A stretch of 64,000 nucleotides of DNA from an uncultured Bacillota bacterium. Lineage in GTDB: Bacteria > Sysuimicrobiota > Sysuimicrobiia > Sysuimicrobiales > Segetimicrobiaceae. Shown here piece after piece: positions 16,198 through 39,973 of this stretch (positions are counted from its first letter, which is position 1; every line of letters starts with the position of its first letter). The notes beneath the pieces are model-generated. The model had not been told where the DNA came from. It made no database searches and worked only from the letters and a program-made list of their open reading frames with translations. The position numbers were made by a program, and so were the translations under genes. The DNA lies in contig CAWDRG010000022.1 in the NCBI GenBank assembly GCA_963804645.1, positions 111,642 through 175,641 on the forward strand. The letters run 5' to 3'.

Positions 16198-16226
16198 TGG
16201 CGGAGGTGGCGCGAATCTAACCTGGG
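16198..16226 (-). repeat. Degenerate copy of tmRNA 3' end
   Basis: TGGCGGAGGTGGCGCGAATCTAACCTGGG matches 39623-39651 at 23/29. Confidence 0.65.
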
Positions 16227-16324
16227 GTCGGCGGCCCCTTCTTCCCGAGCTGCCGGTTTCGAGGACCGTCTGTCCCTACGATGGTACGCCGATTCGTCGC
16301 CCGCCCGTCGCAGCCGAGGCCTGT

Positions 16325-16720
16325 TCAGGGAAGAGCCCGTTTGACATCCGTATGGACAAAATCCTTGCCCTTGAACAATAGTGGCTCCCCCGTGGCCTTT
16401 GCCAGTGCATAAGCGAAGCAGTCGCCAAAGTTCAATTTCGCCGGGTGCCCGCTGCCTCGGCCAAAATCACGATAGGCGTCACGCGCGATCCGAGCCTGGG
16501 CCTCCGTAATCGGGGTAACGATAATCTGTGCCTCCTGCAACAACTCGTCGAAGCCCCGGCTGGCTACCGGATCCCGACCACCGTCGACGACCACCGCGGC
16601 CTCCACGAAACTTACCGCCGACAGGCGTCGGCTTTCCACCACTTGAATCGCTTCCGCATATAGAGCGGCATCGGGTTCGTCCCGAAGGATCGCCAGCAGC
16701 GCCGAGGTGTCAATGATCAT
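16325..16720 (-). CDS. vapC: VapC PIN-domain toxin
   Basis: [39 protein letters not shown]. Confidence 0.92.
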
Positions 16721-16971
16721 CGCGGGAGGCCGTGCTCGTCATAAAGCAGTTCCGCGTGATCGGCAGATCGATAGGGTTCCTTGAGGTGTTTGGCCGTCCG
16801 TTTGCCAATCGCCAGCAATCGGTCAGTAAGACTGTCTTGTTTCGCGCGTCGAACATGCTCCAGCCGCTCACGTATTGCCTCAGTCACAGCCGCGGTCATG
16901 CTCTCACCGGTAAGGGCGGCGAGTCTCTTGGCCAACCGGTGTGCCTCTTCGTTTTTGATGTTGAGGCCCAT
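16717..16971 (-). CDS. vapB: VapB antitoxin (RHH type)
   Basis: [31 protein letters not shown] overlap with vapC. Confidence 0.9.
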
Positions 16972-17030
16972 ATTCTACCTCTTCTACCTTTCGTTTCTAC
17001 CATTCTATCCAAGGACAACATGCAGGTCAA
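16972..17030 (-). promoter_or_regulatory. Sigma-70 promoter and repeated operator of vapBC
   Basis: TTGACC-N17-TAGAAT (17030-17002) followed by three GGTAGAA direct repeats before the ATG. Confidence 0.7.
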
Positions 17031-17170
17031 GCCGAAAGGTCGCGAGGATGCCCGGAGAGTGCCTGCCGGGCATAATGGCCATCCTTCTCCCGGGACCACG
17101 GCCGTCAATGGCCGCGCGGCGGGCCGTGGGCTTTACCCACACGATTGCCGGAAGACCCACCTAATTAATT

Positions 17171-18630
17171 GCCTCTACCGGCTTTCGAGTGGGTACAGGT
17201 CCAGCCCTCCGCAGTGAAAGTAGATGGCCGTCTTGAAATTGTCGACGTTCCGGAAGCCGCGTGCGGTCTTCTTGACCCACTGGATCGTGGCGTTGACGGC
17301 CTCGAGCCCGGCATTCGTGATGCGGTGGCGATGGTAGGTCAGCACGTTCGGTAGGTGCCTGCGGATCAGCCACGCGACCTGCGCCATAGGCTTGAGCCGG
17401 CTGTGCGTGGCGCGCCAGAACCAGCGCGCGAAGAACGTCTCCGCGGACCGGCGGTAACTGTACTCCCAGAAATGTCGGAAGCGCTCCTTGAGTGCCCAGG
17501 CGCGTCCCACTTTCAGGTCATCGCCGAGCAAGAGCCGGAAGGTGCGCCGCTGTTCGGGCTTGAGCTCGCTCGGCCGGCGTAGCCAAAGGTATTTCGTCCC
17601 CGTCAACCGACGATCGGAGGAGCGGGACAACTCCCGGGGTTCGGTCCGCCGCACCTTGTCCACGGCCGTGTGGAGATGCTTCACGACATGGAACTTATCA
17701 AACACAATCTTGTCCACCCCGTCGGGCACGTGACTGGTGACCGAGTGTATGTAGGGCTCCCACATGTCCATCGCGACGGCGGCGATGCTCTCGCGCTGGG
17801 CCGGCGTGCAGGTGGGCCAGAAGGCGTCGAGGCTTTCCGCTTTGCGATCCTCGTTGACGAACAGCACCCGGTGGCGTTGCAGGTCCGCCACCACGGTCAA
17901 GTACCGGTGGCCTTTGGTGATTGCCTTCTCGTCCACGCCGACGTACGGGATCGGTTCCGCTGTCCGGCGCGCCAGCCCGCGCTTCACCGCCCGGCTCTTA
18001 ATCCCCCACGCTTCATCCCAGGTGATCCGGAGTAGGGCCGCCGCGCCGGTGACCGAGCATTCCCGCAGAAAGTCGATCGCCAACCGCTCAAACAACTGCG
18101 TGAACTGGCTGCCCGGCTCGGCCCACGGGATGGTGATCTGCTTGATCCCGTGCTGAGCGCACTGCACCCGCGGGACATCGGCTTCAATCCACGTGCGCAG
18201 CTGGAGCGTGTCCAGATGCCGCCACCGCCGCGGACGGCGATCATAGCCCGGCGACGGCGTCTGACATTCCGGACACGGAAACGGGCCCGGGCCCGCCTCG
18301 ACTTTCACCGTCACTTGCTCGCCGGGGATATCCACCTCCACCCCGACCACCTTCCACGGTGGCGTGAGCCCCAGGATCGTAGCGTATAACTCGACATCGC
18401 GCACCAGACCAGCCTCCTCACGAAGCGTTCCCGCCCCGCGGGTCAGATTGCGCCTGCCGACCATAGTGGCAGGGGTGCACCCGCCCCCGACGGCGGTCAA
18501 GAAGCGCGCAGCGCGCCGAAGGCCATGTTCTTGACGGCCGGCGGGGGTAGGTGTCTGGCTTTGAGCTGGTCGGCAGGCGTTGGTTTCTACTGGTCTACGC
18601 TATTTCACCCACACAACTTCCCGAAGAGCC
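17171..18630 (-). mobile_element. ISL3-family insertion sequence
   Basis: Imperfect 24-bp terminal IRs; 8-bp target duplication AATTAATT (17163-17170, 18631-18638). Confidence 0.92.
17175..18404 (-). CDS. ISL3 transposase
   Basis: Zn finger CPEC, RRWRHLD, GVDE, AMDMWEPY, FDKFHV, ITNA.LEA.N, ARGFRN. Confidence 0.93.
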   Translation of the reverse strand: MRDVELYATILGLTPPWKVVGVEVDIPGEQVTVKVEAGPGPFPCPECQTPSPGYDRRPRRWRHLDTLQLRTWIEADVPRVQCAQHGIKQITIPWAEPGSQFTQLFERLAIDFLRECSVTGAAALLRITWDEAWGIKSRAVKRGLARRTAEPIPYVGVDEKAITKGHRYLTVVADLQRHRVLFVNEDRKAESLDAFWPTCTPAQRESIAAVAMDMWEPYIHSVTSHVPDGVDKIVFDKFHVVKHLHTAVDKVRRTEPRELSRSSDRRLTGTKYLWLRRPSELKPEQRRTFRLLLGDDLKVGRAWALKERFRHFWEYSYRRSAETFFARWFWRATHSRLKPMAQVAWLIRRHLPNVLTYHRHRITNAGLEAVNATIQWVKKTARGFRNVDNFKTAIYFHCGGLDLYPLESR

Positions 18631-18671
18631 AATTAATTAGGTCGTGTTTCTGTTGTTTGATGGGTCCCAAT

Positions 18672-19406
18672 CTACGTCTTGGGCACCACGAGCGGTGTAA
18701 CGAACGCTTCCCGGACCCAGACGTTCGGCCCGGTGGCCAGAACGGACCGGACCACCTGGGCGACATCATCGGGACGGAGCGCCCAGTCACGGCGCGCCAT
18801 GTTGTCCGAGAACTCCGTCCGGACCGACCCGGGTTCAACTACGCTTACCTTCACGCCGCTCTGTCGGACCTCCAGACCCACCGCCTCAGTGAACCCAATC
18901 ACGCCAAACTTCGAGGCTGAGTAGGCGGCGCTTTCCGCCATTCCCAGGCGGCCCGCTCCCGAGGCGATGTTGATAATGTGCCCGTGACGCTGCGCGATCA
19001 TCACCGGCAACGCGGCCCTGGTAAAAAGAAACACCCCGGTCAGGTTGACGTTCATCAGACGCCGCCACGCATCGACCGGCATGGTATGGGTCGGTCCATG
19101 CCATCCGATCCCCGCGTTGTTAACCACGGCATCTAGCCGGCCTCCCCACTCTTGCGCGTGGGCGACCGCCGCCGCAGCGGTCGCCTCATCGGCCACGTCG
19201 CCGGCAACCCCCGCCGCCCGGTTCTCGCCGATTTCCTGGGCGACCCGGGCGAGATCGGTCTCCGTCCGCGAGACCAGGATGATCCGGGCTCCCGCAGACG
19301 CGAGTTCTATGCTCACCGCGCGCCCGATGCCTCGTCCCGCGCCGGTCACGATGATAACCTGATCAAGAAGCTCCTGACCCATCTCCGCACCTCCCGCCGC
19401 GCTCAT
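18672..19406 (-). CDS. SDR family oxidoreductase
   Basis: TGAGRGIG, NNAG, YSASK. Confidence 0.92.
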   Translation of the reverse strand: MSAAGGAEMGQELLDQVIIVTGAGRGIGRAVSIELASAGARIILVSRTETDLARVAQEIGENRAAGVAGDVADEATAAAAVAHAQEWGGRLDAVVNNAGIGWHGPTHTMPVDAWRRLMNVNLTGVFLFTRAALPVMIAQRHGHIINIASGAGRLGMAESAAYSASKFGVIGFTEAVGLEVRQSGVKVSVVEPGSVRTEFSDNMARRDWALRPDDVAQVVRSVLATGPNVWVREAFVTPLVVPKT

Positions 19407-19554
19407 GCGATATATGGTTCAACCTGCTGTGTCGAGGATCGTACCAGCATGCGCTGTAGCAACAACTCCCAGCAACAACCGGGCCACCAAGCATATTGCA
19501 ACGCGTCTCATCATCGTTGATCACGTCTGGAATACGGCCTAGGAACTAAGTTTC

Positions 19555-19803
19555 GGCTCTACCGGGTTTCCCGTGGGTAAAAGTCGGCCGCTTCCTAATG
19601 GATGGAGGATCGCTCTCAGAAGCATTCGGCCTGCCGGTCATATTAGCCCTTTCCCGAGACCAAGGCCGTCAACGGCTGCGCAGCGGGCCACAGGCTTTGC
19701 CGTTAAACGCCGCGGAAGCGGAAGAGTTGCTTTGCAAATGACCGGCAGGCGTCTTGTTTTCGTACCCATGTTCGCCTTTGCCCACACGATTGCCGGACGA
19801 TCC
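19555..19803. mobile_element. Non-autonomous ISL3-type miniature element or remnant
   Basis: GGCTCTACCGGGTTTCCCGTGGGT at left and GCCCACACGATTGCCGGACGATCC at right resemble the ISL3 IRs in inverted orientation; no ORF and no clear TSD. Confidence 0.55.
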
Positions 19804-19963
19804 GAAAAGGAAAGGGAGTCGCGGGTGGCAAGAGGTGCGCTGCCATGCGTAGTGTTTCTCAAAGCTTCGAGGCGAACCGGAAAGCATGTGTGATGTGATG
19901 ATGCCCCACGGTGCCAAAAATCGTGCAAACGAGTGAACAACCTTGCAGATAAAACCTGAGGCG

Positions 19964-19994
19964 TGGTGGACCCGATCTCAAAGAATTCGAACCG
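19964..19994. mobile_element. Putative serine-integrase attachment junction (core plus P' arm)
   Basis: TGGTGGA core followed by CCCGATCT-CAAAGAATTCGAACCG; the last 16 nt are the exact reverse complement of 23896-23911. Confidence 0.7.
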
Positions 19995-20298
19995 TTGCGG
20001 AAGTCCCCATCCAGTGGCCCTGCTCGACACCGGTGCAGTACCAGTGTACCAGCAAATCGCCCCGACGGCGCTTCATCTGCGGCAACTTGGCCTCGCGCGC
20101 GCAACTGAGCCCTACCCCTGCCTCGACAGTCGGTCTCGCCGGGTGTGCCACAGTGCGCTGAAGGACGTCACGTACGAGCGAAGGAGAGAAGAGGCGGTTA
20201 CGAAGTAGGTCGACGATCGCCCGTTCCATGAACGCCCGACGCACCACCGACCCTCATTCGTCTTCAGCCCGTCCCCGAAATGGAATGCCGCCGGGCAG

Positions 20299-21801
20299 TT
20301 AGCACGAACGGGTATCCGGAGGTACCCGTCCCTGCGCGTTCTGCGCACCTCGCAGACAGCTCATTAGTGAGTCAAGCGTGCGGAGATGTTCGAGGTCATG
20401 AAGCACCAGCCCTATGAGCTGCGTCCGACCCTCCGCAGACAAGCGCCCACTGGTCATTTCTGTAAACTTGGCGATGAGGTCACCGTCCGTGAACTTCGCG
20501 TCGGGAGGGCCCCACATGTCGCCGTATGCAAAGTCCGTCCGGAGCACAAAGCTTCGCTGCCGGCTTCGAAGCTCGATTTCACATGGCGCCTTTTTGAATA
20601 CATCCGCAATCGAGGACCCCGTCCACGGACGATAGTGCACTTCCGTCCCAGGTGGATTTCCTTCTACCCGAACCTTGGCCATCAAACGCTGAATTTCCGG
20701 GTCTCGACTCAGTGACAGGTCCACCCACTTGGGGCCTGGAATAATGCCTCTAAGTGCCAGCGCAACGGCAAATACCCCGCTCATATGGACGGCTTCTTGC
20801 GTGTCGGGCGGACCACCCTCGTTCGGGCGGTCCAGTCCGGCAGGCCCGGAAAACCGCAGCACAATCTCATCGATTTGCGTCACAGAGAGGTGTTCGGCAT
20901 TTCGGAGCCTGGACAACAGCCACAGGTGTGGTCGATACAGATTGCATACCGGCTCTGGTTTATACGAGAGCCAGCGCATGCACTCCCACGTGTGCCCGAG
21001 ATCTTCTAGCAGATACTTGGGTTCAAATCGGTGGGTATTCCACAGCGCCGGTAACCCATTGGGATCGTCCAATACGCTTGTATCTCCCGTATACCCGCGG
21101 GCCGCGAGGAACGCCGCCGATACGCCGACCTGAGCTGTCCATCCCATTGGAGAATACTTGACCATGGAAAACGGACGAGTGCGTAACCATTTAAGCAGAC
21201 TGGGGCCGGGGCTAAGGTATGTTGCCAGTCCCACCGCCTGTGTCATGCGTCCTACGTCAAGTCGCAACAATCTTCCAACCCCAACGGCCACGCCGAGCGC
21301 CCCATATCCATACCCAAACACTGGCCCGATCGCATACCGCGTCTTCAACCCGTCATGTCCCTCAAGCAAGGGGGCCATCGCCATCGTGAGACGCGCCGCG
21401 ATCTCGTAACCGATCAAGACAGCCTCGACCACGGATCGACCACTGGCCTTGACGTACTCCCCCGCCGCGAGAATGCCTGCGAGCACGCTTGGAACATGGT
21501 GTGCAACGTTCAAAAATACGGCGTCTCCGTCTAGCGCGTTGGCAAGTTCCGCATTGGCAAACGCTGCGCGGTCGACAGCGGTTTGAGACGTCATCCCAAC
21601 CACGGTCGCCTGCGGGGCTCCGGACATATCCTCTACGAATCCTGCAGCCAACCGCCCCTTTTCCGTCGCCCACCCACCGACCATGCACCCCAGGGTATCG
21701 AGAATGAGTCGTTTGACCTCGTAAACCAAGGCGTCCGATAGTCCAAGTTCCTGCTCAAGTGATCTGGCAGCAATCGTCTGTATTAGGTTCACCATATGCA
21801 C
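20299..21801 (-). CDS. MmgE/PrpD family protein
   Basis: VKRLILDTLGC..GG, AAFANAELANALDGD, IGYEIAARL, AARGYTG, YKPEPVC. Confidence 0.85.
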   Translation of the reverse strand: MHMVNLIQTIAARSLEQELGLSDALVYEVKRLILDTLGCMVGGWATEKGRLAAGFVEDMSGAPQATVVGMTSQTAVDRAAFANAELANALDGDAVFLNVAHHVPSVLAGILAAGEYVKASGRSVVEAVLIGYEIAARLTMAMAPLLEGHDGLKTRYAIGPVFGYGYGALGVAVGVGRLLRLDVGRMTQAVGLATYLSPGPSLLKWLRTRPFSMVKYSPMGWTAQVGVSAAFLAARGYTGDTSVLDDPNGLPALWNTHRFEPKYLLEDLGHTWECMRWLSYKPEPVCNLYRPHLWLLSRLRNAEHLSVTQIDEIVLRFSGPAGLDRPNEGGPPDTQEAVHMSGVFAVALALRGIIPGPKWVDLSLSRDPEIQRLMAKVRVEGNPPGTEVHYRPWTGSSIADVFKKAPCEIELRSRQRSFVLRTDFAYGDMWGPPDAKFTDGDLIAKFTEMTSGRLSAEGRTQLIGLVLHDLEHLRTLDSLMSCLRGAQNAQGRVPPDTRSC

Positions 21802-21860
21802 ACCTCGTGGTTCGATAAGCCCGGCGTCACGGGCTCCGACGATAGAGTGCAGATCTTAGC

Positions 21861-22015
21861 TTATCGCGCACGCGGATCAAGGGAGTCACGAAGTGCGTCC
21901 CCGAACGAGGCGACCACGACAACTATCAGGGGTAGAAAGATTCCCGGCATCGTCGAAATCCACCGTACGCTATCCAAGGAGTTGCGGCCCTGACTAATTG
22001 TGACTCCCAGTGAAG
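21861..22015 (-). pseudogene. Peptide ABC permease (DppC-like) C-terminal fragment
   Basis: PSLGVTISQGR....WISTMPG....GDALRDSLDPR. Confidence 0.7.
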
Positions 22016-22252
22016 GGGTCGATGAAGCGGATTTGCGGGGATGAGCTCGTAGTCGACCGCGGCGGACGATCAGAAAGGCGACCAGGTTCAGGATCGTCTG
22101 CTCGGATAGGATTGGCCGGTCGAGATTCGGATTCTCCCACGTAGTAGACAGCGACGCGAACATGCTGCAATGCGCTTGTCCTCCCGGCTGGTCACGGTGC
22201 GTCCTCGTCTCGCGGCTAACTCGTCCGCACCTCCACGCTCGTCGACCGGGTT

Positions 22253-23140
22253 CTATGCTCGCTCTGCGCTCGGGGTACCGGTCCGAGGCCGGCGGACCAG
22301 AGCGCCGCCCGCAGGCCACAGCGCGTCGCGCAGTTCGGGGCGCTGCCATTGGGTCAGCACCCCAGCCTTGGCGCCATTGCGCCGCTGCGAGTCCACCCGG
22401 TCATCCTGGGCGCGCAGGTCGCGGATGCGGTCCAGGCCAATCTCTACGAGAAACAGGCCCGGCTGCGTGGTCTCAAAGATAATCTCCTCGGGGGCGGCGA
22501 CCATTGCCAGTCCCCGTTGCTCCCGTCCAAAAAGGTTCTGGGTCGTTGCCACGATGGCCAGGTTTTCGATTGCGCGCGCCCAGATGAGACAGCGCCACGA
22601 GGCCCACAGCTGCTGCTTATCGGTCCCCGCCGGTAGGAAAATCATTTCAGCGCCCCGCAGCGCCAAGGCGCGGCTGACTTCCGGCATATACACCTCGCTG
22701 CACATGGCGAGGCCGATCGTCCCGTACTCGGTATCGAACACCGGGAATTCGTCCGCGGCGACGTAGTCGAAATCCCAATCGGTCCCGCCACGGTAGATCC
22801 AGGGTCCGGGCGGATAGGTCCGCCGGTATCGCCCCGGCGACCCGCCGGTCGGGCGCGCCAACAAGAGCACGTTGTACGCCCGTCGCGTGCCGTCGTTAAA
22901 CGGCTCGAGCGTTCCGAACACGACATACACGCCGTAGCGCGCGGCGGCCTCTGTCATCTGCGGTATCGGATCAAACAGCGTCGGCACCCGCCACGGCCCG
23001 GGGTAGGTCTCCGGAAACAAGACAACCTGGGCGCCCTGTTGCGCCGCTGTCTCGATGTGCCGCACAGCGGCCGCCACGTTGCGTTCGTCGTTCGGTGGCC
23101 GGTGCGCTAGTGGCTGTACTATCGCAAGCGTGCAATTCAT
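22253..23140 (-). CDS. Carbon-nitrogen hydrolase family protein
   Basis: LFPETYPG, YRRT, MCSEVYMPE, ARAIEN. Confidence 0.85.
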   Translation of the reverse strand: MNCTLAIVQPLAHRPPNDERNVAAAVRHIETAAQQGAQVVLFPETYPGPWRVPTLFDPIPQMTEAAARYGVYVVFGTLEPFNDGTRRAYNVLLLARPTGGSPGRYRRTYPPGPWIYRGGTDWDFDYVAADEFPVFDTEYGTIGLAMCSEVYMPEVSRALALRGAEMIFLPAGTDKQQLWASWRCLIWARAIENLAIVATTQNLFGREQRGLAMVAAPEEIIFETTQPGLFLVEIGLDRIRDLRAQDDRVDSQRRNGAKAGVLTQWQRPELRDALWPAGGALVRRPRTGTPSAERA

Positions 23141-23895
23141 CCCGTCACTCCACGCAAAGCAGCTTGGCTACCCAACGCCTTGGCTTCTGTATCTGGGCCG
23201 AGCCTGGGGTTCCGGACGAACGTCAGCGGCACCCCCATGTTCCCGCAGTCGATTCCGCACCACGCACTGAGTGGTGATGGTCGCGGTCCGCGTACCGGTC
23301 GGGGTCGTTGACAGCTCCCCGTGCGGGAGACGCGTCTGGGCCACGGAACGCCGCCCCCAGCGGTCGTAGGGCACGGGTTCGTCCTGGGGGTGGGGATTCC
23401 TCCCGGCCGGACGCCTTCCGTCAGTACGCCGCCTCCAGGGCCCGTGTGGCGGCTCTGGAGTTCCGCTTGATCGCGCGGACCCACTCGTAGATCGCGTTGC
23501 GGAATCTCCACCGAGGCTCATGGAGCTCCATGTCCACCGCCAACCCATGCGTTCGGCGTCGCGGTCTGCATGGCGGCGCGCTGGATGCTCTGCAGCCCGT
23601 ATCAAGAAGCGAGGATGGCCGAATGACCGGCGCGGGCATGGACAGAAGTGAAGCGCCAGTGCTGCCAGTCCGCTGACGCGTTGCGCATGTCCCCGGGGAT
23701 GGGATCCAGCGCGGAAGCCACCTCCCCAACGCACGGTCATCCCAAGAACCGTGGAAGGCACCGGTCGAGGTCTGAGCACGCCGGTTCTATCATGAACCCG
23801 TGGGAATGCCGGCCGACACGCTTTCACAGGTCGCGTTGTCCGTCAATATCCTGACGCCCATTGGGCACGCCGGGCCAAGACGAAGTGCGGGGAGG

Positions 23896-23943
23896 CGGTT
23901 CGAATTCTTTGCGCTGGTGGAGGCGGCGGGAATCGAACCCGCG
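23896..23943 (-). repeat. Perfect tmRNA 3'-end copy (23915-23943) with adjacent att arm (23896-23911)
   Basis: 29/29 identity to 39623-39651, preceded by CGGTTCGAATTCTTTG-CGC. Confidence 0.92.
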
Positions 23944-23948
23944 GCCAG

Positions 23949-24658: not shown

Positions 24659-24691
24659 CCCGTCCGCGGTAGGATGGTAAACTTGACTTCT

Positions 24692-28901: not shown

Positions 28902-28917
28902 CGGAGGAAATCCTGGA

Positions 28918-31620: not shown

Positions 31621-33000
31621 ATGCGACGCCGGATGACTGCACTCGTGCTGCTCAGCGCGTTTGCGTTTGTCGTGCAGGGATGGGGCGGACTCGCTCCGAT
31701 TCGGGCCGCCGGCCAGCAAACCGTCCACCTCACCGCCTGGACGATCGGGCCGGATGAACCGTCCTACTACCGCAAGGACAACCTCCTGAGCGCCGCTGAC
31801 GCGCTCAACAAGCAGCTGGCTGCCGAAGGCTCGGGGATCCGGGTCACTCTGGATGCGACCTTCGCCACCGGAGGCGGACAGACGTGGGGCGCGTACAAAC
31901 AGCGGTTCGTGCTGGCTGCGCAGTCGGGGAAGGCTCCCGACATTGTGGCGACCGGGAACGAGGACATCGCGGCCTGGGCTGCTGCTGGCTACGTGATCCC
32001 CTTGGACACGTATGTGAAGCAGTACAAGCAGTTCGCGGACGTCATCCCATCACTCTGGAATGCCACCAAGTTCGATGGGAGAATCTACGCGATTCCGCAA
32101 GATGTCGAGGCGAGACCCCTGTACTTTAGCATGCCGTTCCTGGCGAAGCTCGGATGGTCGCAGGACAAGATCGCGGGTCTGCCCAAGGCGATTGAGGCCG
32201 GCCAGTTCACGCTCACCGACATGTTGCAGACGGCCAAGGAGGCGCAGGACAAGGGGCTCGTGTTGAAGGGATACGGGTGGTGGATCCGTCCGATCAACGG
32301 GCCGGATTATTACATGTACTACGAAGCGTTCGGCGGCAAGATGACGGATGCAAGTGGCAAGTTGCTGCTCGACACCAAGGCGCTCCGTGGTGACTATTCG
32401 TTCTTCCACGACGCCGTGTTCACATATAGCGTGACGCCCAAGGATATCATCGGGACCGATTGGAACAGCTGGCACGGGGCCGTAGTCGGAAAGCAGGTGC
32501 TGTTCACGCAGTGCGGGACATGGTGCTGGGCCCAGTGGATCCAGCAGTACAAAATGCCGGCCGATGAGGTGTGGAAGACGTACGGGTTCGCGCTCGTGCC
32601 CTCGGGCACCAAGGGCGGACGTCCCGTGACCCTGAGTCATCCGATCGTGTACATGATCAGCAAGTCGTCGCCACACGCGGACCTCGCGGCGCGCCTCCTG
32701 GCGCTCGCCACGACCCCGCAACTTAACGCCCGACACGCCGTGACGAGCGGCCATCTCGCGGTGCTCACTGATGAGGCACAGGTACCGGCGTACGCGCAGG
32801 ACACGTTCGCGAAAGATACGATCTACATGCTGCGGTACACGACGTTCTTGCCGAACGACGCACTCTTCGGCACCTATGACCAGGCAATCTGGGAGGGCCT
32901 CTCGGCCGTGGTTTCCGGCAAGATGACGGCGGACCAGGCCGTACAGACAGTCACGCAACAGTTGCAGACGAACCTGAGCGACCACGTCGTTATCCGGTGA
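31621..33000 (+). CDS. Carbohydrate ABC transporter substrate-binding protein
   Basis: Signal peptide, SGKAPDIV, GRIYAIPQDVEARPLYF, VVSGKMTADQA. Confidence 0.88.
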   Translation: MRRRMTALVLLSAFAFVVQGWGGLAPIRAAGQQTVHLTAWTIGPDEPSYYRKDNLLSAADALNKQLAAEGSGIRVTLDATFATGGGQTWGAYKQRFVLAAQSGKAPDIVATGNEDIAAWAAAGYVIPLDTYVKQYKQFADVIPSLWNATKFDGRIYAIPQDVEARPLYFSMPFLAKLGWSQDKIAGLPKAIEAGQFTLTDMLQTAKEAQDKGLVLKGYGWWIRPINGPDYYMYYEAFGGKMTDASGKLLLDTKALRGDYSFFHDAVFTYSVTPKDIIGTDWNSWHGAVVGKQVLFTQCGTWCWAQWIQQYKMPADEVWKTYGFALVPSGTKGGRPVTLSHPIVYMISKSSPHADLAARLLALATTPQLNARHAVTSGHLAVLTDEAQVPAYAQDTFAKDTIYMLRYTTFLPNDALFGTYDQAIWEGLSAVVSGKMTADQAVQTVTQQLQTNLSDHVVIR

Positions 33001-33974
33001 AGCCGTCCCCGGAGAGCCTCTCCGGGAGGCCGGTCACCACGCAGGGTGCCGCCCGGCGTCGATGGACAGCGGGCGGCTATCCTACGTTGTTTCTGGCCCC
33101 CGCCGGGCTTGTCGTGCTGGCGCTGTTTCTCGCGCCAGCATTGCTGACGATCGTCATCAGCCTGACGAACTTGAGCGTGGCGACCGGGCTGACCCATTAC
33201 CGTTGGATCGGGCTGGCCAACTACTCGCAGATCGCCCACAGCCCGTGGTTGAGCCTCATTCTCTGGAACACCCTGATCTATGTGGCCTGCACCCTCGTTC
33301 TGTTCAACGTCGGGCTCGCGCTGGTGCTCGCGCTGCTGACCGCGCATCTGTCGGAGCGAGCGGCCGGAGTGTTCCGCGTCCTGTGGATGCTGCCGCGCAT
33401 CACGCCCTCGGTCGTGTACGCGCTGATGTGGCGGTGGGCCGCCGCCCAGGCTCCGTACGGCACGCTGAGCCAACTCCTAGGGCTTTTCGGCATCCCCGGA
33501 AGGAACTGGATGAACGCGCACCCGTGGGCGTTCGTAATCGGCTTGAACGGGCTTGTCGGTGCGTCGTTCGGCATGATCATCTTCTCGTCCGCGATCACGG
33601 CCATCCCGCGCGATCAGTACCTTGCTGCCCAGGTCGATGGAGCATCGGCCTGGCAGCAGGTGTGGCGGATCACCTTGCCGCGGCTGCGATGGCCGGTTTT
33701 GTTCGTAACAGCGTACCAGACGCTATCGCTGTTGACGTCGTTCGAGTACATCCTGCTGACAACCAACGGGGGCCCCGGGTTCTACACGACCGAGGTGTGG
33801 TCGCTGTACGCGTTCCATCTGGCGCTGTCCAACTACTTCGGGAACACGCAGTTCGGGCTCGGCGCCGCCCTCGCCGCGATTCTCGTGGTCCTCGGCGTCG
33901 GTGCCTCGGTCTGCTACCTCCGGCTCTTCCGGTTCAGCGAGCTCGTGGCGCCGCCACGGATCGAGGTCAACTGA
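32997..33974 (+). CDS. Carbohydrate ABC permease 1
   Basis: IGLANY, EAA-like YLAAQVDGAS.WQ..WRITLP, LTTNGGPG. Confidence 0.9.
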   Translation: MKPSPESLSGRPVTTQGAARRRWTAGGYPTLFLAPAGLVVLALFLAPALLTIVISLTNLSVATGLTHYRWIGLANYSQIAHSPWLSLILWNTLIYVACTLVLFNVGLALVLALLTAHLSERAAGVFRVLWMLPRITPSVVYALMWRWAAAQAPYGTLSQLLGLFGIPGRNWMNAHPWAFVIGLNGLVGASFGMIIFSSAITAIPRDQYLAAQVDGASAWQQVWRITLPRLRWPVLFVTAYQTLSLLTSFEYILLTTNGGPGFYTTEVWSLYAFHLALSNYFGNTQFGLGAALAAILVVLGVGASVCYLRLFRFSELVAPPRIEVN

Positions 33975-33975
33975 G

Positions 33976-34803
33976 ATGCCGGTGGCGGCCCTCCGGTGGC
34001 GCTGGACGATGGGGGCCGCCCTGCTGGTACTGTCGGCCCCCATCGTCCTAACCTACGGATGGTTGGTGATGGCGTCGTTCAGCGTCAGTACAACGGGCAT
34101 TGTTCCGCACGGGTTCACGTGGGACAACTGGCGGTTCTTGTGGAGCACGCTGCCGAACGAGGCGAACGCGTGGGTAGCGGCCACAAACTCGCTGCTCTTT
34201 GCCGTGTCGCTGGCGCTCGCGGAGGTGCTCATCGGCTCGATGGCGGCGTACGCGCTCTCCCGCCTGAACTTCCGCGGACGCGGGGCGTTTCTTGCCTCCA
34301 CCATGGTTCTGCATTCGTTCCCCAGCGTGACGCTCCTCATCGCGATCTTCCTGATTCTCCGCGTTCTCGGGCTCTACGACCAGCTCGGCGGCGTCATCCT
34401 GGTGAAGCTGGCCCTCGACCTGCCCCTCGGAATCTGGATCATGAAGGGGTTTTACGACGCGGTTCCCTGGGACATCGAGATGGCCGCGATGATGGACGGG
34501 TACTCTCGGCTACAGATCTGGTGGCGGGTAATGCTTCCGCTCATCTCGCCGGGGCTGTTCGCGTTCGGCATCTTCGCCTTCCTGAGCGGATGGAACGAGT
34601 TTCTGCTGCCGTACGTGCTGCTGCCGAGTCAGAACTCTCAAACGCTGTCGGTGTTGATGGCCAGCCTGTCCGGGGAGGAGCAGTACGCGGACTACGGGTT
34701 GGTGACGGCGCTCAGCGTATTCTACATCCTGCCCGCGGTCGTGTTCTTTGCGCTGACGCAGAAGTACCTTCTGCGAATTTTCACGGGGGGAGTGAAGGGG
34801 TAG
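33976..34803 (+). CDS. Carbohydrate ABC permease 2
   Basis: AAYALSRLNFRG, EMAAMMDG, WNEFL, GGVKG C-terminus. Confidence 0.9.
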   Translation: MPVAALRWRWTMGAALLVLSAPIVLTYGWLVMASFSVSTTGIVPHGFTWDNWRFLWSTLPNEANAWVAATNSLLFAVSLALAEVLIGSMAAYALSRLNFRGRGAFLASTMVLHSFPSVTLLIAIFLILRVLGLYDQLGGVILVKLALDLPLGIWIMKGFYDAVPWDIEMAAMMDGYSRLQIWWRVMLPLISPGLFAFGIFAFLSGWNEFLLPYVLLPSQNSQTLSVLMASLSGEEQYADYGLVTALSVFYILPAVVFFALTQKYLLRIFTGGVKG

Positions 34804-34804
34804 C

Positions 34805-35878
34805 GTGGAATTGACGTTGGAGCACGTCTCCAAAGAGTTCGGCCGCGTCAGAGCGGTCGATGACGTCTCCCTGACAGTCCGCGACGGTGAGCTCGTGGCG
34901 TTGCTGGGCCCTTCAGGCTGTGGCAAGTCAACCACGCTCTTCCTCGTGGCCGGGCTGTACCGGCCGTCGGCGGGACGTATTTTGTTCGGACAGCGCGTGG
35001 TCAACGACGTGAGTCCACAATCCCGCGGCGTGGGCTTGGTCTTCCAGAGCTACGCACTGTACCCGCACTTAACCACCTTCGAGAATATCGCGTTCCCGCT
35101 GCGCGTGAAGCGGGCGTCCCGCGCGGAGGTGACCCGACGGGTGCACGAGGTCGCCGAGCTGACCGGCATCACCGAGTGCCTGCCGAGACCGCCGGCCCAG
35201 TTGTCTGGCGGACAACAGCAGCGCGTGGCACTTTGCCGGGCGCTCGTGAAGGCGCCCGCGATCCTGCTGCTGGACGAACCGCTCTCCAACCTCGACGCTC
35301 GGCTCCGCGAAGCCACGCGGGCGGAGATCAAACGGCTGCAACGGGAACTGGGGATCACGACGCTTTTCGTTTCCCACGACCAGGCCGAGGCGCTAGGGAT
35401 CGCCGATCGGGTCGGGATCATGGACCACGGTAAACTCGTGGTGCTGATGACACCGATGGATTTGTATCAACGGCCGCCGTCGCGCTTCGTCGCGGAGTTT
35501 ATCGGCACGCCGCCGATGAACTTCATGCCGGTTCAAGTGGCGGAGAATGGTATCCTGTTCGATGGCGCGTCGCTTCGACAGCTGCCGCGCCCCATCGCTC
35601 AGGGCGCGTACATGCTCGGCGTGCGGCCCGAGCATCTCCACGTAGCGGCCGACGGCACTCTACCCGCCCGGATCGTGCTCGTCGAAACCCTGGGCCGAGA
35701 CCTGCTGATCCACGCGAACTGCGGGGGCGTGCGCCTGCGGATCCTCGCCGACCCGGAGACGCACGTCGGGCCCGACGATCACGTCCGCCTACGGCTCGAC
35801 TGGGATCGCGCGCACCTGTTCGAAGCGGACAGCGGACGGGTCGTGCCGTTCGCCGGGAAAGAAGGGAGCGTGCTATGA
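34805..35878 (+). CDS. Carbohydrate ABC ATP-binding protein (MalK-like)
   Basis: GPSGCGKST, LSGGQQQR, LLDEPLSNLD, TOBE-like tail. Confidence 0.93.
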   Translation: MELTLEHVSKEFGRVRAVDDVSLTVRDGELVALLGPSGCGKSTTLFLVAGLYRPSAGRILFGQRVVNDVSPQSRGVGLVFQSYALYPHLTTFENIAFPLRVKRASRAEVTRRVHEVAELTGITECLPRPPAQLSGGQQQRVALCRALVKAPAILLLDEPLSNLDARLREATRAEIKRLQRELGITTLFVSHDQAEALGIADRVGIMDHGKLVVLMTPMDLYQRPPSRFVAEFIGTPPMNFMPVQVAENGILFDGASLRQLPRPIAQGAYMLGVRPEHLHVAADGTLPARIVLVETLGRDLLIHANCGGVRLRILADPETHVGPDDHVRLRLDWDRAHLFEADSGRVVPFAGKEGSVL

Positions 35879-37224
35879 CCGCACGGCGCAACGCGGTGGT
35901 CCTGCTCGTCGACAGCCTACGCTACGACTTCGTTGGATTCAACGGCAACGCGCGGATTCGAACACCGTGCCTCGATGCGTTCGCGCGGCGGGCGGCCGTC
36001 TTCGATCAGGCCGTGGTGGGTTCCTACCCGTGTCTGCCGTGCCGGCGGGAGATGTGGACGGGCCGCTACGAGTTCCCGTTTCGGGGCTGGGGACCGCTTG
36101 AGCGCAGCGACGTGATCTTCTCGGAGTTGGCCCGCGGCGCAGGGTATACGACGATGTTTATCACCGACAACTATCTGCTCTGCTACCAAGATGGAGACTA
36201 CCAGCGCGGCTTCTGCTGGGATCTCATCCGGGGACAGGAGCACGACGCCTGGGTGACCGATCCGACGCTGCCGATCGTGCTGCCGTGCCGGCCGGAGAAG
36301 CTCCGCGACCCCTACGGCCGAGTCGCCCAGTACTTGCGGAACACCGCTTCGTGGCGCACCGAGGAGGACCATTTCGGCCCTCAGGTCATGCGCCGTGCGT
36401 CCGAATGGCTTGAGCGCAACCGGACGCTCGACGGATTTCTCCTGTGGGTGGATTGCTTCGACCCGCACGAACCCTGGGACCCGCCCTATCAGTACCACCA
36501 ACTCTACAACCCGGGCTATCAGGGCGAGCGTGTTTTCTACCCAGCGTACGGCCGTGCTGATTCGCTGTCGGATGAGGAGCTGGCCGAGTGTCGAGCGCTC
36601 TACGCGGGTGAAGTCACGATGGTCGACCGATGGATCGGGCGCGTGCTGGAGAAACTCGAGGACCTCGGCCTGCTGCGGAACACCCTGGTGGCGATCATCA
36701 CCGATCACGGCTATATGTTCGGCGAGCACGGGCTCCTGGGGAAACCCTGGGCCGCACTCGCCGAGTCGAACCTCTATCGTGAAGTGGCGCACCTCCCGTG
36801 GGTCATGTTTCATCCCGAGGGGGCGGGCGCCGGTCGCCGCTTCGACGCGCTTGTGCAGCCGGTCGATCTATTCGCGACCCTCCTCGCGTGGTTGGATGTG
36901 CCGGTCCCCGGTCCCGTCCATTCGCGCAGCCTGCTGCCGCTGTTGGAGGGCCGTGCCCCGCGCATTCGTGACCACGCGTTCTGGGGGCGCTTCGGAGAGG
37001 CGATACACATTACCGATGGGAGCTGGGAGGCCTTCTTCTGGCCGGAGGGGGCACCGTACCGGGACCGGCTCTATCACCTCGCCGTCGATCCGGCCGAGAC
37101 CAGCGACCTCTCGGACTCGCATCCCGATGCGCTTCGGCGCTTGCGCGACAGCGCCCAGGCGTGGCTACGTGAGATCGGCGGGCCGGACCTCCGACGGCGA
37201 GCGTTTGTGCGTGATCATGTGTAG
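35875..37224 (+). CDS. Sulfatase
   Basis: VDSLR, CLPCR (CxPxR), FDPHEPWDPP, TDHG. Confidence 0.9.
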   Translation: MTARRNAVVLLVDSLRYDFVGFNGNARIRTPCLDAFARRAAVFDQAVVGSYPCLPCRREMWTGRYEFPFRGWGPLERSDVIFSELARGAGYTTMFITDNYLLCYQDGDYQRGFCWDLIRGQEHDAWVTDPTLPIVLPCRPEKLRDPYGRVAQYLRNTASWRTEEDHFGPQVMRRASEWLERNRTLDGFLLWVDCFDPHEPWDPPYQYHQLYNPGYQGERVFYPAYGRADSLSDEELAECRALYAGEVTMVDRWIGRVLEKLEDLGLLRNTLVAIITDHGYMFGEHGLLGKPWAALAESNLYREVAHLPWVMFHPEGAGAGRRFDALVQPVDLFATLLAWLDVPVPGPVHSRSLLPLLEGRAPRIRDHAFWGRFGEAIHITDGSWEAFFWPEGAPYRDRLYHLAVDPAETSDLSDSHPDALRRLRDSAQAWLREIGGPDLRRRAFVRDHV

Positions 37225-37295
37225 AGGAGACCCGACGACCATTGGGACGCCGTTCTCGATGTGCGGCGCGGGCCCTGCGATCGGTGAGGGCGGCG

Positions 37296-38201
37296 ATGTC
37301 GAACCAGGATCTATCTGAAGTCCACGCCCACCTGTGCGCCGCCGCGGACGCTCTGTTGAAGGCGGCCGTGCGCATGGATTGGGGCGCGCGTAGGATCGAG
37401 GACGACCCGGTTATCGAGGCGACGATCACGACGCTCCGGGCCATCGTTGGCATGCATCACGCTGATCCTCGCGCCTTCGAACAGCTCGCGATCCTGCTGC
37501 ACAATGTCGGACGCCTCAACGCAGCGGCCCGTCTGTACGCCGAAGTCAACCGCCTTGATCCGCCGTATCCTCCCGACGACCGGCAACGTCAGGCCATCGA
37601 GGATCTCTGCCCGCGTCTGCTGACCACCCGGCCCGAGTGGTTCAGGTTATCCGATTGCGCGGCGATTCACCATCCGGTGGATCCGGTCATCGGGTTCCAT
37701 TTCTTTTGGGAGGATGACTGGGACTATCCCGACGATGACGAACCGTGCGACCACGAGGTCGTCTGGGTTCGGTACCGGCCGCCGGCGCTTGTGCCCGTCG
37801 AAGTAATGACGTATTTTCATGGACGCATCCTGACCGGGTCCATGTCCGCTACGCCGGCGCGTCCGGCGGTCTGCGTGCAGTGGGGCAAGCACGGCTCGCT
37901 GCCCGCCGGATGGGAGCACGCGGATGAGCTGCGCGCGGCGTTGCGTTGCGACTTCGACGCATCCCAGCAGGGAGGACGCGTGCCGGATCATCCGCGAAAG
38001 CGCGCCTGGCCGCGTCAGTTCCCCGGTGGATGGCCGGAGTATACGCGGTTCGACCGCGAGGTCGACCCGCTTCCGTTAATTCGAACGCGGAAGTGGTGTG
38101 CCAGCGCTCGCTGGGCGAACGCGGCGCTGCACGATCTCTTTGTCCCTTACAATTTCCATGCAAAGCGAGAGTGGCCAGACGACGGCCTGGTCAACCTCTG
38201 A
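37296..38201 (+). CDS. Hypothetical protein with TPR-like helix and acidic/His-rich domain
   Basis: In operon; FFWEDDWDYPDDDEPCDHEVVWV, YFHG, QWGKHGSL. Confidence 0.7.
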   Translation: MSNQDLSEVHAHLCAAADALLKAAVRMDWGARRIEDDPVIEATITTLRAIVGMHHADPRAFEQLAILLHNVGRLNAAARLYAEVNRLDPPYPPDDRQRQAIEDLCPRLLTTRPEWFRLSDCAAIHHPVDPVIGFHFFWEDDWDYPDDDEPCDHEVVWVRYRPPALVPVEVMTYFHGRILTGSMSATPARPAVCVQWGKHGSLPAGWEHADELRAALRCDFDASQQGGRVPDHPRKRAWPRQFPGGWPEYTRFDREVDPLPLIRTRKWCASARWANAALHDLFVPYNFHAKREWPDDGLVNL

Positions 38202-38269
38202 TCCCACCCGAAGGGCTCGCTAGCGGAGCGGGCAGCGGTGTGATGAGCGCAATCTCTTTCCGTGAGCCG

Positions 38270-38438
38270 CGATGATTCCGCGACACCCGAACCCGCAGAT
38301 AGGCATACTCCCGAATGTCCCATCCATACATCTTGTCGTACAGGGTGTAGAACCGAGATTGTGGCTTCTTCTCACCTTGGCGTGGAGCTGCCGCTGAAGG
38401 GTCCGAATCCGCTCCGGGATTCCTAAGCTCCTCGCCAA
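38270..38438 (-). pseudogene. Group II intron reverse transcriptase N-terminal remnant
   Basis: SLGIPERIRTLQRQLHAK, then after a frameshift RFYTLYDKMY..DIREYAYLRV (RT0-like). Confidence 0.7.
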
Positions 38439-38501
38439 TCCTCCATCATTTCGCTCCGTTGAACGGCATCTCAGAACTGAGGTCTCTTCCCTCCGCCGGC
38501 T

Positions 38502-38530
38502 TTGTGGAGGCGGCGGGAATCGAACCCGCA
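38502..38530 (-). repeat. tmRNA 3'-end copy
   Basis: 27/29 identity, with 26 consecutive matches. Confidence 0.9.
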
Positions 38531-38588
38531 CCCCCAAGCTTCGTCCCAAGACACTTGGAAATCCCAAGAATAGACCGATCCACATGGT

Positions 38589-38627
38589 ATACATTTTTGT
38601 ATCAAACTAACTACATTATTGTATAAT
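38589..38627 (+). promoter_or_regulatory. Promoter with two palindromic operators
   Basis: ATACA-TTTT-TGTAT (38589-38602), TACA-TTAT-TGTA (38612-38623), TATAAT at 38622-38627. Confidence 0.75.
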
Positions 38628-38633
38628 ATGCCC

Positions 38634-38957
38634 ATGGACGATAAACTCTTCGGTTCCTCAATCAGGACCGATACGCTAGTCACTATCGGTCGCCTTCAAC
38701 GGACTTACTCGTCTGAGATTGCCCGTCTGCTTGGCCGGCGAGTTGTCGAGATTCAGCGGGCCGTGGCGTCCCTCGAACTCGCAGGGGTGATCGTAACCAA
38801 CCGCCTGGGCAACACACGGATTGTGGAACTCAATCCGACCTTTCCCGTAAGAGATGAATTGTACGCGTTGCTATTACGCATGAGCGAGTTACCGATATAC
38901 GTAGATCGTTGGTCAAAGATCCGGCGTCGCCCACGCGCCATGGGCAAGCCGTCATGA
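38634..38957 (+). CDS. Winged-helix protein (putative antitoxin/regulator)
   Basis: KLFGSSIRT, YSSEIARLLG...VEIQRAVASLELAGV.....GNTR; ATGA-coupled to next gene. Confidence 0.75.
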   Translation: MDDKLFGSSIRTDTLVTIGRLQRTYSSEIARLLGRRVVEIQRAVASLELAGVIVTNRLGNTRIVELNPTFPVRDELYALLLRMSELPIYVDRWSKIRRRPRAMGKPS

Positions 38958-39520
38958 AATTCTCCGGTATGTCGCTCGTCGAGGTGGCCGCACTCGTCGC
39001 TGCACATTTGAAGACTTATGGAATTGAGGTTGTCGTTGTCGGCGGCAGCGCCATCACGTGTCATGTTCCTGCGGTGTATACCTCGATGGATATTGACTTT
39101 GCCGTCACGTCGGGCATCGATCGACGCAGGATCACCCGTGCGTTGCACGAACTCGGCTTTGAGTTACGCGGGCGAGTCTTTGTCCATCCTGACACCATGT
39201 ATCCACTGGACTTTGTGGCAGATCGACCATATGTCGAGCAGGACCCCATCTATGACTTTGCGGCGATTCATACGCCCACAGGTACCGTCCAAGTCCTCCG
39301 CCTCGAAGACGCCATCGCCGATCGCATCGCCGCATTCCTTCACTGGAGTGATTCCGAATCGCTCGAGGTGGCGGTACGCGCTGCAATCGCTGCACGAGAT
39401 CGGCTGACGTGGCCACGCGTGAGCGCTGCGTTACGAAGACTGGATACAACGTCGCCAGACACTGAGCAGCGCATGACCTTAGCACACGTGCGATTGAGGC
39501 GCGCGATCGCGGACGCATAG
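38954..39520 (+). CDS. Nucleotidyltransferase-fold protein (putative toxin)
   Basis: VVVVGGSA....YTSMDIDF (GG/S..DxD pol-beta-type motif). Confidence 0.72.
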   Translation: MKFSGMSLVEVAALVAAHLKTYGIEVVVVGGSAITCHVPAVYTSMDIDFAVTSGIDRRRITRALHELGFELRGRVFVHPDTMYPLDFVADRPYVEQDPIYDFAAIHTPTGTVQVLRLEDAIADRIAAFLHWSDSESLEVAVRAAIAARDRLTWPRVSAALRRLDTTSPDTEQRMTLAHVRLRRAIADA

Positions 39521-39622
39521 CAACAGGCCCAACGATCGCTCTCGTCGAACGTGGCGCGCGTCGAAATACCTCGTCTAAGAGAGCAACACCCCGATTCGGG
39601 TCACGCTGGCGCTTATCGGGCA

Positions 39623-39973
39623 TGGTGGAGGCGGCGGGAATCGAACCCGCGTCCTGAAGCCGCGAGGGCAGGGCATCTACGCGCGTATCCTGCGGTTTGG
39701 TGTCGCGGGACCGGACTCCCGCAGGCCGGATTCCAATCCCGCCAGCTCTCTAGGTCTTAGCCGGCCCTCCCGGAGCGAGGAGAACCGGAGCATCCGGCTG
39801 GTGACGCTCGATCCCCGCCCGCCGGCGCTGCGGGGGGAGCGACGCTACTTAATTAAGCAGCGTATGCGAGCTGATTGTCGGCGTGTATGCGCCGTCCAGT
39901 TGTTTAACGAGGACCTGGACCACCTCGGCGCGCCACCCTGCTTCTGCCTGCTCAGTCGAAGCCGTTCGCCCCC
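39623..39973 (-). ncRNA. ssrA: tmRNA
   Basis: 5' GGGGGCG pairs with 3' CGCCTCC-ACCA including the G3:U alanine wobble; T-arm GCGGG-TTCGATT-CCCGC; tag ORF 39882-39853 ADNQLAYAA*; 351 nt. Confidence 0.97.

Follow-up and report, generated by a model that had tools for sequence, protein, structure and literature searches.

The window analyzed here is a stretch of 64,000 nt (G000:C22:111642-175641) from a 175-kb contig (C22) in the metagenome assembly of a peat-soil bacterium (source assembly G000; 5.3 Mb, 22 contigs, 4.2% estimated contamination). It carries the transfer-messenger RNA (tmRNA) gene, ssrA, and downstream of it an array of six displaced copies of the ssrA 3' end, delimiting units that contain several predicted toxin-antitoxin (TA) operons. 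The ssrA gene (39623-39973, minus strand) is intact and full length, was identified by both ARAGORN and Rfam (RF00023, 152.7 bits), and encodes the tag peptide ADNQLAYAA. The reverse complement of its 3'-terminal 29-mer occurs on the plus strand at 23915 with no mismatch, at 24692 with one, and at 27372, 29578 and 38502 with two each; no match was obtained in 100 shuffles. A more degenerate copy at 16198 has six mismatches (23/29). The initial annotation of this DNA had reported six repeats of the ssrA end at these positions in the same orientation, and this is confirmed, with no match expected by chance. Because position 29 varies among the displaced copies of the window and of relatives, the shared block is 28 nt and not 29. 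This attachment core corresponds to the last 28 nt of ssrA, from the CCA end through the whole T-arm.

All six displaced cores lie on the plus strand. Nearest to ssrA is r38502 (38502-38529; 27/28), which has lost its first 2 nt at its junction with a group II intron fragment. The next core, r29578 (29578-29605), is split by an insertion sequence (IS), IS256-b, and matches at 28/29 once this IS is removed. It is followed by r27372 (27372-27399; 26/28), r24692 (24692-24719; 28/28; bridged by metagenome contig X1 record 1) and r23915 (23915-23942; 28/28). The farthest and most decayed core is r16198 (16198-16225; 22/28). Three of these cores are preceded by a conserved 17-20 nt sequence (GGTTCGAATTCTTTGCG), termed trailer A, which stands directly after the CCA end: at 29558-29577 before r29578, at 23894-23914 before r23915, and in degenerate form at 16181-16197 before r16198. 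Core matches of at least 19/28 arise about once per strand in shuffles, and copy 16198 additionally has its trailer-A-like flank. No further core of at least 19/28 was found in the window left of 16198 or, above chance, on the other strand. The seven cores (ssrA plus six displaced) share one orientation and all lie within 24 kb downstream of ssrA. An intact tmRNA gene with displaced 3' fragments downstream in direct orientation is the Islander-type signature of integrated islands. The core was not found elsewhere in the 5.3-Mb assembly, the sole other match being a tRNA-like sequence with three mismatches on contig C9. The exact 28-nt core also recurs in 61 IMG/VR viral contigs, 29 of them with a tmRNA call and about 10 with non-tmRNA sequence after the core, so that it is evidently a target of many unrelated elements.

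The cores bound six units, numbered here from ssrA outwards, with net sizes of 1093, 7512, 801, 2652, 749 and 7688 nt (U6 6223 nt without its ISL3 element). The G+C content of every unit is 0.55 to 0.64, against 0.686 for the genome, and the units are absent downstream of ssrA in 22 family relatives. The unit sizes and gene contents given in the initial annotation proved correct. U1 (38530-39622; 1093 nt, G+C 0.556) contains two plus-strand open reading frames (ORFs): a weak winged helix-turn-helix (HTH) ORF (38619-38957; HTH matches at E=0.002-0.3) and an AbiEii-like nucleotidyltransferase ORF (38909-39520; AbiEii E=0.001, 19.5 bits against a cut-off of 22.5). This pair is a possible AbiE-type TA system below the Pfam cut-offs; its homologues (67-74%) are found in relatives away from ssrA. 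U2 (29606-38501), with all genes on the plus strand, contains IS256-b, a sugar-type ABC transporter with a substrate-binding protein (31621-33000), two permeases (32997-33974 and 33901-34803) and an ATPase (34805-35878), a sulfatase (35875-37224) and an unknown ORF (37242-38201). The ABC/sulfatase operon shares 89% identity with G002:C61 and 74-76% with G012, G010, G001, G003 and G014. Its homologues are never on the ssrA contig of these relatives, and there is no second copy in the source assembly.

U3 (27400-29577; 801 nt without IS256-a, G+C 0.549) and U5 (23943-24691; 749 nt, G+C 0.574) each contain a vapBC operon alone. In U3, a MazE/AbrB-type vapB (28918-29148, plus strand) is followed by a PIN-domain vapC (29148-29552, plus strand), with gaps between operon and core of 25 nt on the vapC stop side and about 124 nt on the other. 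U5 carries a vapB with a weak ribbon-helix-helix (RHH) match (23985-24230, plus strand) and a PIN-domain vapC (24227-24658, plus strand); 41 nt separate the core from the vapB start and 33 nt the vapC stop from the next core. U4 (24720-27371; 2652 nt) contains genes for DinB (24801-25373, minus strand), a PEP-CTERM protein (25557-26297, plus strand), the HTH protein HigA (26417-26770, minus strand) and the Gp49-family HigB (about 26763-27140, minus strand). In U6 (16226-23914), a PIN-domain vapC (16325-16720) with an Rv0623-type vapB (16717-16971), a short-chain dehydrogenase/reductase (SDR) gene (18672-19406), an MmgE/PrpD gene (20299-21801) and a CN hydrolase gene (22253-23140), all on the minus strand, were predicted together with an ISL3 element (17171-18636). 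Homologues of the SDR gene are at non-ssrA loci in relatives.

The predicted TA content of the array is thus three vapBC operons, one higBA operon and one weak AbiE-like pair. The layout of the three vapBC pairs fits that of known VapBC systems (PIN at E=8e-17, 1.7e-10 and 2e-16), with an upstream antitoxin gene that overlaps or abuts the toxin gene. The higBA layout, a toxin gene with the HTH antitoxin gene after it, fits a type II system (Gp49 at E=6.5e-15), with HTH_3 and HTH_37 below their cut-offs (22.3 and 21.1 bits). Since the antitoxin families of the three vapBC pairs differ (Rv0623-like, weak RHH and MazE/AbrB), local duplication did not give rise to them. The 23.8-kb array contains three of the 15 PIN matches (E≤1e-5) found genome-wide, where 0.07 would be expected by length.

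None of the six units encodes an integrase of its own. PF00589 matches 11 places in the genome and PF00239 identifies four intact large serine recombinases, none of either on contig C22, so that the lack of tyrosine and serine recombinases noticed initially in the window holds for the whole contig. A Pfam scan of 181 ORFs (≥62 aa) between 12000 and 42450 yielded no recombinase, and conjugation genes were likewise not among the matches. The window was also searched by tblastn with five serine recombinases of the source assembly and five integrases of family A, the tyrosine-integrase islands found at ssrA of relatives (see below). No recombinase body was detected, and no serine-recombinase remnant was found below E=0.1. 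The family-A matches were confined to the core-encoded tail, a stretch at 27347-27403 and a 15-aa match at 22022-22066 (E=0.004); the last was dropped as an integrase remnant, as the ORF at this site (21861-22349) is not similar to a complete integrase.

Several marks of decay were identified in place of recombinases. A 40-nt plus-strand remnant of a family-A integrase 3' end (27332-27371) abuts r27372 and shares 85-88% identity (counted with the core) by blastn with the ssrA-adjacent integrase ends of G015, G016, G012 and G019. By tblastn alone this remnant is weak (19 aa, E=0.65), and its flanks were aligned by eye. A frameshifted group II intron fragment of 218 nt (38286-38503, minus strand), spanning domain IV and the reverse transcriptase start, has homology that stops exactly at the start of the core, which here is r38502 minus its first 2 nt; a longer copy of the intron is on contig C15 (RVT_1, E=3.3e-33). 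IS256-a (27525-28901, minus strand; transposase 27563-28885) lies in U3, with an 8-bp overlap at the joint, and is missing from contigs of two runs. IS256-b (29596-30980, plus strand; transposase 29708-30952) lies inside r29578 with a 9-bp duplication (TCGAAACCG), has copies elsewhere in the source assembly at 100% identity on C19 and 99% on C15, and is missing from one metagenome contig. Because some metagenome contigs lack them, both IS256 insertions are considered recent. With ISL3 in U6 they bring the IS copies of the array to three, and past the last repeat a truncated amylase gene and a gene-end remnant are further signs of decay. The other family-A-like integrases of the source assembly are fragments only, beside tRNA-Pro genes. 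Such fragments lie at C8:110000-110420 (L073) and C11:25400-26100 (L074) beside tRNA-Pro(cgg) and tRNA-Pro(tgg), and at C17:12715-16271 (L072) two tRNA-Pro-like 3' ends stand 3.5 kb apart with an integrase fragment; all three loci are further decayed tDNA islands.

A mobile element was found inside or flush against three of the six displaced cores. IS256-b interrupts the T-loop of r29578, the intron fragment adjoins r38502, and in a sibling strain the T-loop of r23915 contains an IS-like sequence. The IS-like sequence of the sibling r23915 (L079, 1-123) matches DNA on contig C19. Insertions at the displaced cores may reflect a target preference for the T-arm hairpin.

To place the array among its relatives, 93 other genomes of the same class were tallied (60 in an earlier scan; the unpublished G034 enters only these two tallies). 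Two to three cores on one contig (≤2 mismatches) are present in 10 of the 93, and the source assembly has the highest number, six plus the decayed copy. The PF00589 search covered ten relatives. In G006, G015, G016, G019 and G046, a tyrosine integrase gene lies within about 400 nt of the intact ssrA 3' end and is convergent with it; in G012, a stop-containing integrase fragment lies beside a displaced core copy. The integrase ORFs of G015 and G019 run into the core and end in the core-encoded ...MVEAAGIEPAS. Among 12 ssrA-proximal regions of relatives, five have an integrase body, one (G002) a 61-aa remnant and six none. Some of the intact family-A islands are small: that of G019 (3.1 kb) encodes the integrase, an excisionase-like HTH_17 protein and a methyltransferase, and that of G015 (4.3 kb) the integrase, ArsR and a P-type ATPase. 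In the 9.3-kb island of G016 the integrase is followed by an MNT/HEPN pair. A distal arm motif (...acaaggattcccgcgatg...) is common to G019, G015, G012, G006 and G016; read by eye, it is absent from all repeats of the window. Small integrase-less units also occur in relatives (2.6 kb in G001, 1.1 kb in G060, 0.26-0.29 kb in G086). At 23 further loci of relatives, neither a TA gene nor an integrase gene was found among the 57 ORFs lying up to 1.3 kb from the ssrA end.

Some additional features of ssrA loci were observed in these genomes. A 14-kb ssrA island in G046 (L057; G046:C1:2883025-2897303), also of family A, carries a complete type I-E CRISPR-Cas set, with the tyrosine integrase gene adjoining ssrA. 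G086, from another family, has three tmRNA-bearing contigs and gene-less units of 257-290 nt between cores (L075, C105:1-1000; L076, C71:88278-88595). Past the core, each of these units has a diverged terminator hairpin of its own and part of the tmRNA T-arm region in inverted orientation. A smpB homologue lies within about 1 kb of ssrA in G015, G016 and G012; in the window, smpB (44708-45217) is about 4.7 kb from ssrA, with amidase and lutABC-like genes between (39974-45217).

Trailer A points to a second type of element end. The window contains three matches at ≤3 mismatches, against 0.18 expected. In relatives, trailer A stands against the distal core copies of G015, G016 and G012 and, in G055 and G037, against the intact ssrA; other relatives have a terminator hairpin in this position. 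In the source assembly it also follows an intact tRNA-Ala gene on contig C15 (G000:C15:441441). The gene after it encodes a large serine recombinase truncated to its Recombinase and zinc-ribbon domains, with the catalytic domain missing; 1.8 kb farther on is a vapBC pair. The truncated protein matches an ORF reading into the ssrA core of G055 (35% identity over 105 aa, E=2e-9) and shares 28-29% identity with the four intact large serine recombinases of the genome. Because the C15 and G055 loci both pair trailer A with serine-recombinase remnants, we infer from these two loci that trailer A may be the target-proximal end of a serine-recombinase element family, designated family B. A recombinase site, a terminator and a processing signal are candidate functions for the sequence. 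A reading as the coding end of a conserved protein was rejected, since only G055 and G016 share about 35 residues and the other copies contain stops.

Trailer A resembles an inverted copy of a T-arm half-site. A solitary inverted trailer A in U6 (19977-19993, minus strand) forms a perfect 16-nt inverted repeat with 23896-23911, and this repeat brackets the PrpD/CN-hydrolase block, roughly the block missing in a sibling contig (L158, below). A second mobile-DNA-rich region of the genome, on C15 (175000-245000), contains four PIN genes, two IS256-b-like stretches, a large serine recombinase gene, an integrase-like fragment and a group II intron that carries a long ORF for reverse transcriptase.

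Contigs of public metagenome runs were used to examine the continuity and the strain variation of the array. Contigs from independent runs bridge the repeats at 24692, 27372 and 29578, and contig L079 covers 23931-26366; among the contig matches listed, 23915 and 38502 are not bridged intact. In contigs of four public runs searched over 21000-40500, which are blind to rare forms, no core-to-core joint or circle was found, joints with short sides (about 20 nt) having been disregarded as unreliable. The only variant joints in these contigs are two IS-free forms. Three contigs represent sibling strains. L079 (99.6% identical over 2.4 kb) and L080 (99.5% over 961 nt) both have other IS-like sequence in r23915. 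L079 joins 26366 to 31345, that is, the PEP-CTERM region to the leader of the ABC operon, and identity drops to 88% at the joint. It lacks 4978 nt (2216 nt without the two IS copies) comprising higBA, r27372, U3 and r29578, and the ends of this block are not cores. No coding-like ORF extends across the joint, so the 26367-31344 block splits no gene. L158 (95-98% identity) lacks 15407-18630, 19851-23809 and 72 nt with trailer A and most of r23915. None of the differences in these three contigs, which are short and possibly chimeric or from other species, equals a core-to-core unit. Read from these sequences, the indels of sibling strains suggest that change in the array is not cassette-shaped.

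The surroundings of VapC relatives were inspected at 152 loci (80 metagenome loci for the U5 VapC and 72 genome loci for the U3 VapC). Beyond two near-identical contigs of the array itself, none of the other 150 carries the core, and five lie near some tRNA gene. With up to 8 mismatches in 28 allowed, nothing resembling the core was found at five vapBC homologues of family relatives (G010:C73, G002:C91, G005:C398, G010:C165 and G015:C167).

Taken together, these results make it likely that the array is a decayed, accreted stack of at least six integrative-element remnants at ssrA, similar to cis-mobilizable elements (CIMEs). The initial annotation had offered two interpretations, and its view of successive islands eroded to their TA cores is supported by the integrases of relatives, the remnants and the PIN excess. 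Under this model, elements would have entered the ssrA 3' end successively, or partly as blocks, each incoming element bringing its own 28-nt tmRNA end, which would rebuild ssrA and push the older end and the older element downstream. At least two element families, the tyrosine-integrase family A and the trailer-A family B, would have used the site. The recombinases of all units would later have been lost through deletions, IS insertions and the group II intron, and the cargo, above all the TA operons, would have survived. The most likely reason for this retention is that deletions hitting a TA pair or ssrA would be selected against, so that the DNA between them could be lost; TA operons would thus persist because their loss is penalized. 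For the proximal unit, ssrA would bound deletions on the other side, leaving vapC stops 25-33 nt from the core. The units would now be immobile or at best cis-mobilizable.

Several observations weigh against this account. A recognizable integrase remnant is present in just one of the six units. U3 and U5 are very tidy, each a vapBC operon with short gaps, and erosion would have had to place several deletion ends precisely to leave them so. The cores do not become steadily more decayed away from ssrA, the copies at 23915 and 24692 having no mismatch and the nearer ones one or two. Homologues of the SDR gene, of the U1 pair and of the ABC/sulfatase operon occupy ordinary non-ssrA loci in relatives, and these stretches of the array may have come by other routes. 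The block lost in L079, with ends that are not cores, may indicate that part of the array was moved by recombination outside attachment sites.

The last two observations would also fit an array built from multi-core blocks imported or shuffled by homologous or illegitimate recombination, IS activity or excision of composite islands, with chromosomal operons captured between cores. Both the direct joint of L079 and the segments missing from L158 are of this kind, as is the perfect 16-nt inverted repeat of trailer A around the PrpD/CN-hydrolase block. The three trailer-A ends also favor such shuffling, as simple stacking predicts an end type only where that family landed. However, seven cores in one orientation, all downstream of ssrA, are what site-specific stacking predicts, a pattern not predicted by random shuffling of blocks, and the metagenome contigs concerned are of the short and possibly foreign or chimeric type noted above. 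Co-transfer of composite islands is already part of the accretion model, and block shuffling, which we regard as unlikely, is a refinement of it more than an alternative.

The other interpretation in the initial annotation, an integron-like stock mobilized in trans, found no support. In this reading, U1, U3 and U5 are recombinase-less mini-cassettes moved in trans via the 28-nt core, and the array is a TA and defense stockpile resembling an integron or a staphylococcal cassette chromosome (SCC). Arrays with short repeats behind the 3' end of a conserved gene are familiar from the composite SCC islands at rlmH (orfX) and from the TA cassettes of chromosomal integrons; some of their cassettes lack a recombinase of their own, and TA cassettes stabilize large arrays. 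The three units in question, 0.75-1.1 kb in size, are each one two-gene module between two cores, and their like occurs in G001, G060 and G086. The vapBC pairs belong to different antitoxin families, and elsewhere the genome encodes several tyrosine recombinases as well as four intact large serine recombinases. However, no cognate intact recombinase was found in the source assembly: the family-A relatives there are fragments, and the serine fragment linked to trailer A is distant from the intact enzymes. With no core outside the array, the genome offers neither a free attP nor another landing site. The family-A distal arm motif is missing from the window repeats, the strain differences are not core-bounded, VapC relatives are core-flanked in just two of 152 loci, both near-identical to the array itself, and neither TA genes nor integrases adjoin ssrA in the 23 further loci.

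Unlike SCC islands and integrons, the array also lacks ccr and intI, and its repeats are copies of the target-gene end and not attC hairpins. With respect to integrons, contig C22 has no PF00589 match, the boundaries are direct copies of the tmRNA end, and unit genes lie on both strands. With respect to SCC, there is no large serine recombinase on the contig, and trailer-A ends are tied to serine remnants at two other loci. The trans-mobilized reading is therefore held to be improbable. Capture and movement of the TA-only units (U5, U3 and perhaps U1) as minimal cassettes by the ssrA-specific recombinases of visiting elements, acting on the bare tmRNA end, appears quite improbable. In this view, the ssrA tail would be a self-stabilizing, integron-like TA and defense store whose displaced tmRNA ends also serve as landing pads for IS elements and introns.

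Misassembly across the repeats, which had been named initially as the danger to the array, is highly improbable, because even in a 22-contig metagenome assembly with some estimated contamination and a region rich in repeats and IS elements, the repeat is just 28 nt, contigs from independent runs bridge three repeats and cover 23931-26366, and the same architecture is seen in relatives.

The architecture of the array is already known from other bacteria, and the best-supported view is that it fits the known accretion-and-decay model. In Dehalococcoides, McMurdie et al. (2011; PMC3146451) describe tandem islands downstream of a single-copy ssrA, with repeats within 100 kb, insertion in the T-loop region and a recombinase gene beside the ssrA-proximal boundary; 16 of their 31 islands have an integration module, and the 15 without are discussed as cis-mobilizable or fixed. 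As here, the tandem islands are delimited by ssrA or by a short direct repeat of its 3' end. The Dehalococcoides islands, as described there, differ in having one serine-recombinase family (DsiB), a 20-bp repeat and reductive dehalogenase cargo, compared with 28 nt and a dominance of TA genes here. In the present group, moreover, relatives use a tyrosine integrase and a second, serine-linked end, no unit of the six has a recombinase, and units are as small as 0.75 kb. The putative recombinase type of family B, a serine recombinase, is the type reported for the Dehalococcoides ssrA islands.

CIMEs, according to Guedon et al. (2017; PMC5704250), whose review also treats the accretion of islands derived from ICEs and IMEs, have lost integration and transfer genes and kept attL and attR. 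The present units resemble them in their lost recombinases, the integrase 3' remnant at 27332-27371 and the absence of conjugation genes from the Pfam scan. Cores flank every unit, with arms that are unlike those of family-A islands and look eroded; one core is truncated and one is split by an IS. However, CIMEs as defined in that work have functional att sites and demonstrated cis-mobilization, whereas the units here are delimited by 28-nt cores read from sequence. In the Islander/TIGER survey (Hudson et al., 2015; PMC4383910), no target is more enriched than tmRNA, the attachment site is in the T-stem region, and the 3919 islands include 125 tandems of at least two and four of at least three, where each tandem member needs its own integrase. 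The array is like these islands in its intact tDNA and direct-orientation displaced 3' fragments, but it fails the integrase-per-member filter entirely. In the tycheposon islands of Prochlorococcus (Hackl et al., bioRxiv 10.1101/2020.12.28.424599), elements lie beside tRNA and tmRNA genes with partial tRNA copies between them, and fragmented integrases and further partial tRNAs mark older events. As reported there, that system belongs to another phylum, carries mainly nutrient-uptake cargo and includes integrase-bearing active elements shown to excise, in which it differs from the present one.

The array stands out for how many repeats it has, for having lost every recombinase, for its TA content and for its two TA-only units. 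It offers a clean example of a tmRNA hotspot after element death, a recombinase-less stack in which TA operons are the main survivors. Island finders that require one integrase per island would overlook the entire array. The locus and its relatives also point to two recombinase families, one tyrosine and one probably large serine, that share a single 28-nt tmRNA end as their target in one bacterial family. Proof of mobility would make the vapBC-only units a new type of minimal cassette; on present evidence, the accretion-and-decay model is illustrated and extended, not changed.

Beyond the last repeat, strain-specific DNA with a G+C content of 0.633 continues from 11900 to 16197, and this stretch may be an older unit whose far repeat is gone. 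It contains a truncated CBM48/alpha-amylase gene (15273-16172, minus strand) and a 66-nt gene-end remnant (15341-15406) that is longer in a sibling strain. An 826-aa ORF in the same stretch (12684-15164, minus strand) has a coding-like GC pattern; even with the Pfam threshold relaxed to E≤1 it gave no match, and homologous DNA is lacking from all 22 family relatives. Farther out, a lower-GC patch at 4000-7200 (0.60-0.63) contains a second CN-hydrolase gene (6314-7159) and an isolated gene for the type VI secretion protein Hcp (5711-6187). This patch adjoins a conserved 5'-3' exonuclease gene, which in G001 lies 1.2 kb past the distal ssrA repeat. In a bacterium of another genus (L065; G010:C73:5396-7247), two DinB genes are immediate neighbors of a vapBC operon homologous to that of U5 (70% DNA identity), in the same order and orientation as vapBC, the repeat at 24692 and DinB in the window, but with no core between them. 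This adjacency could be a coincidence or a trace of an older joint unit.

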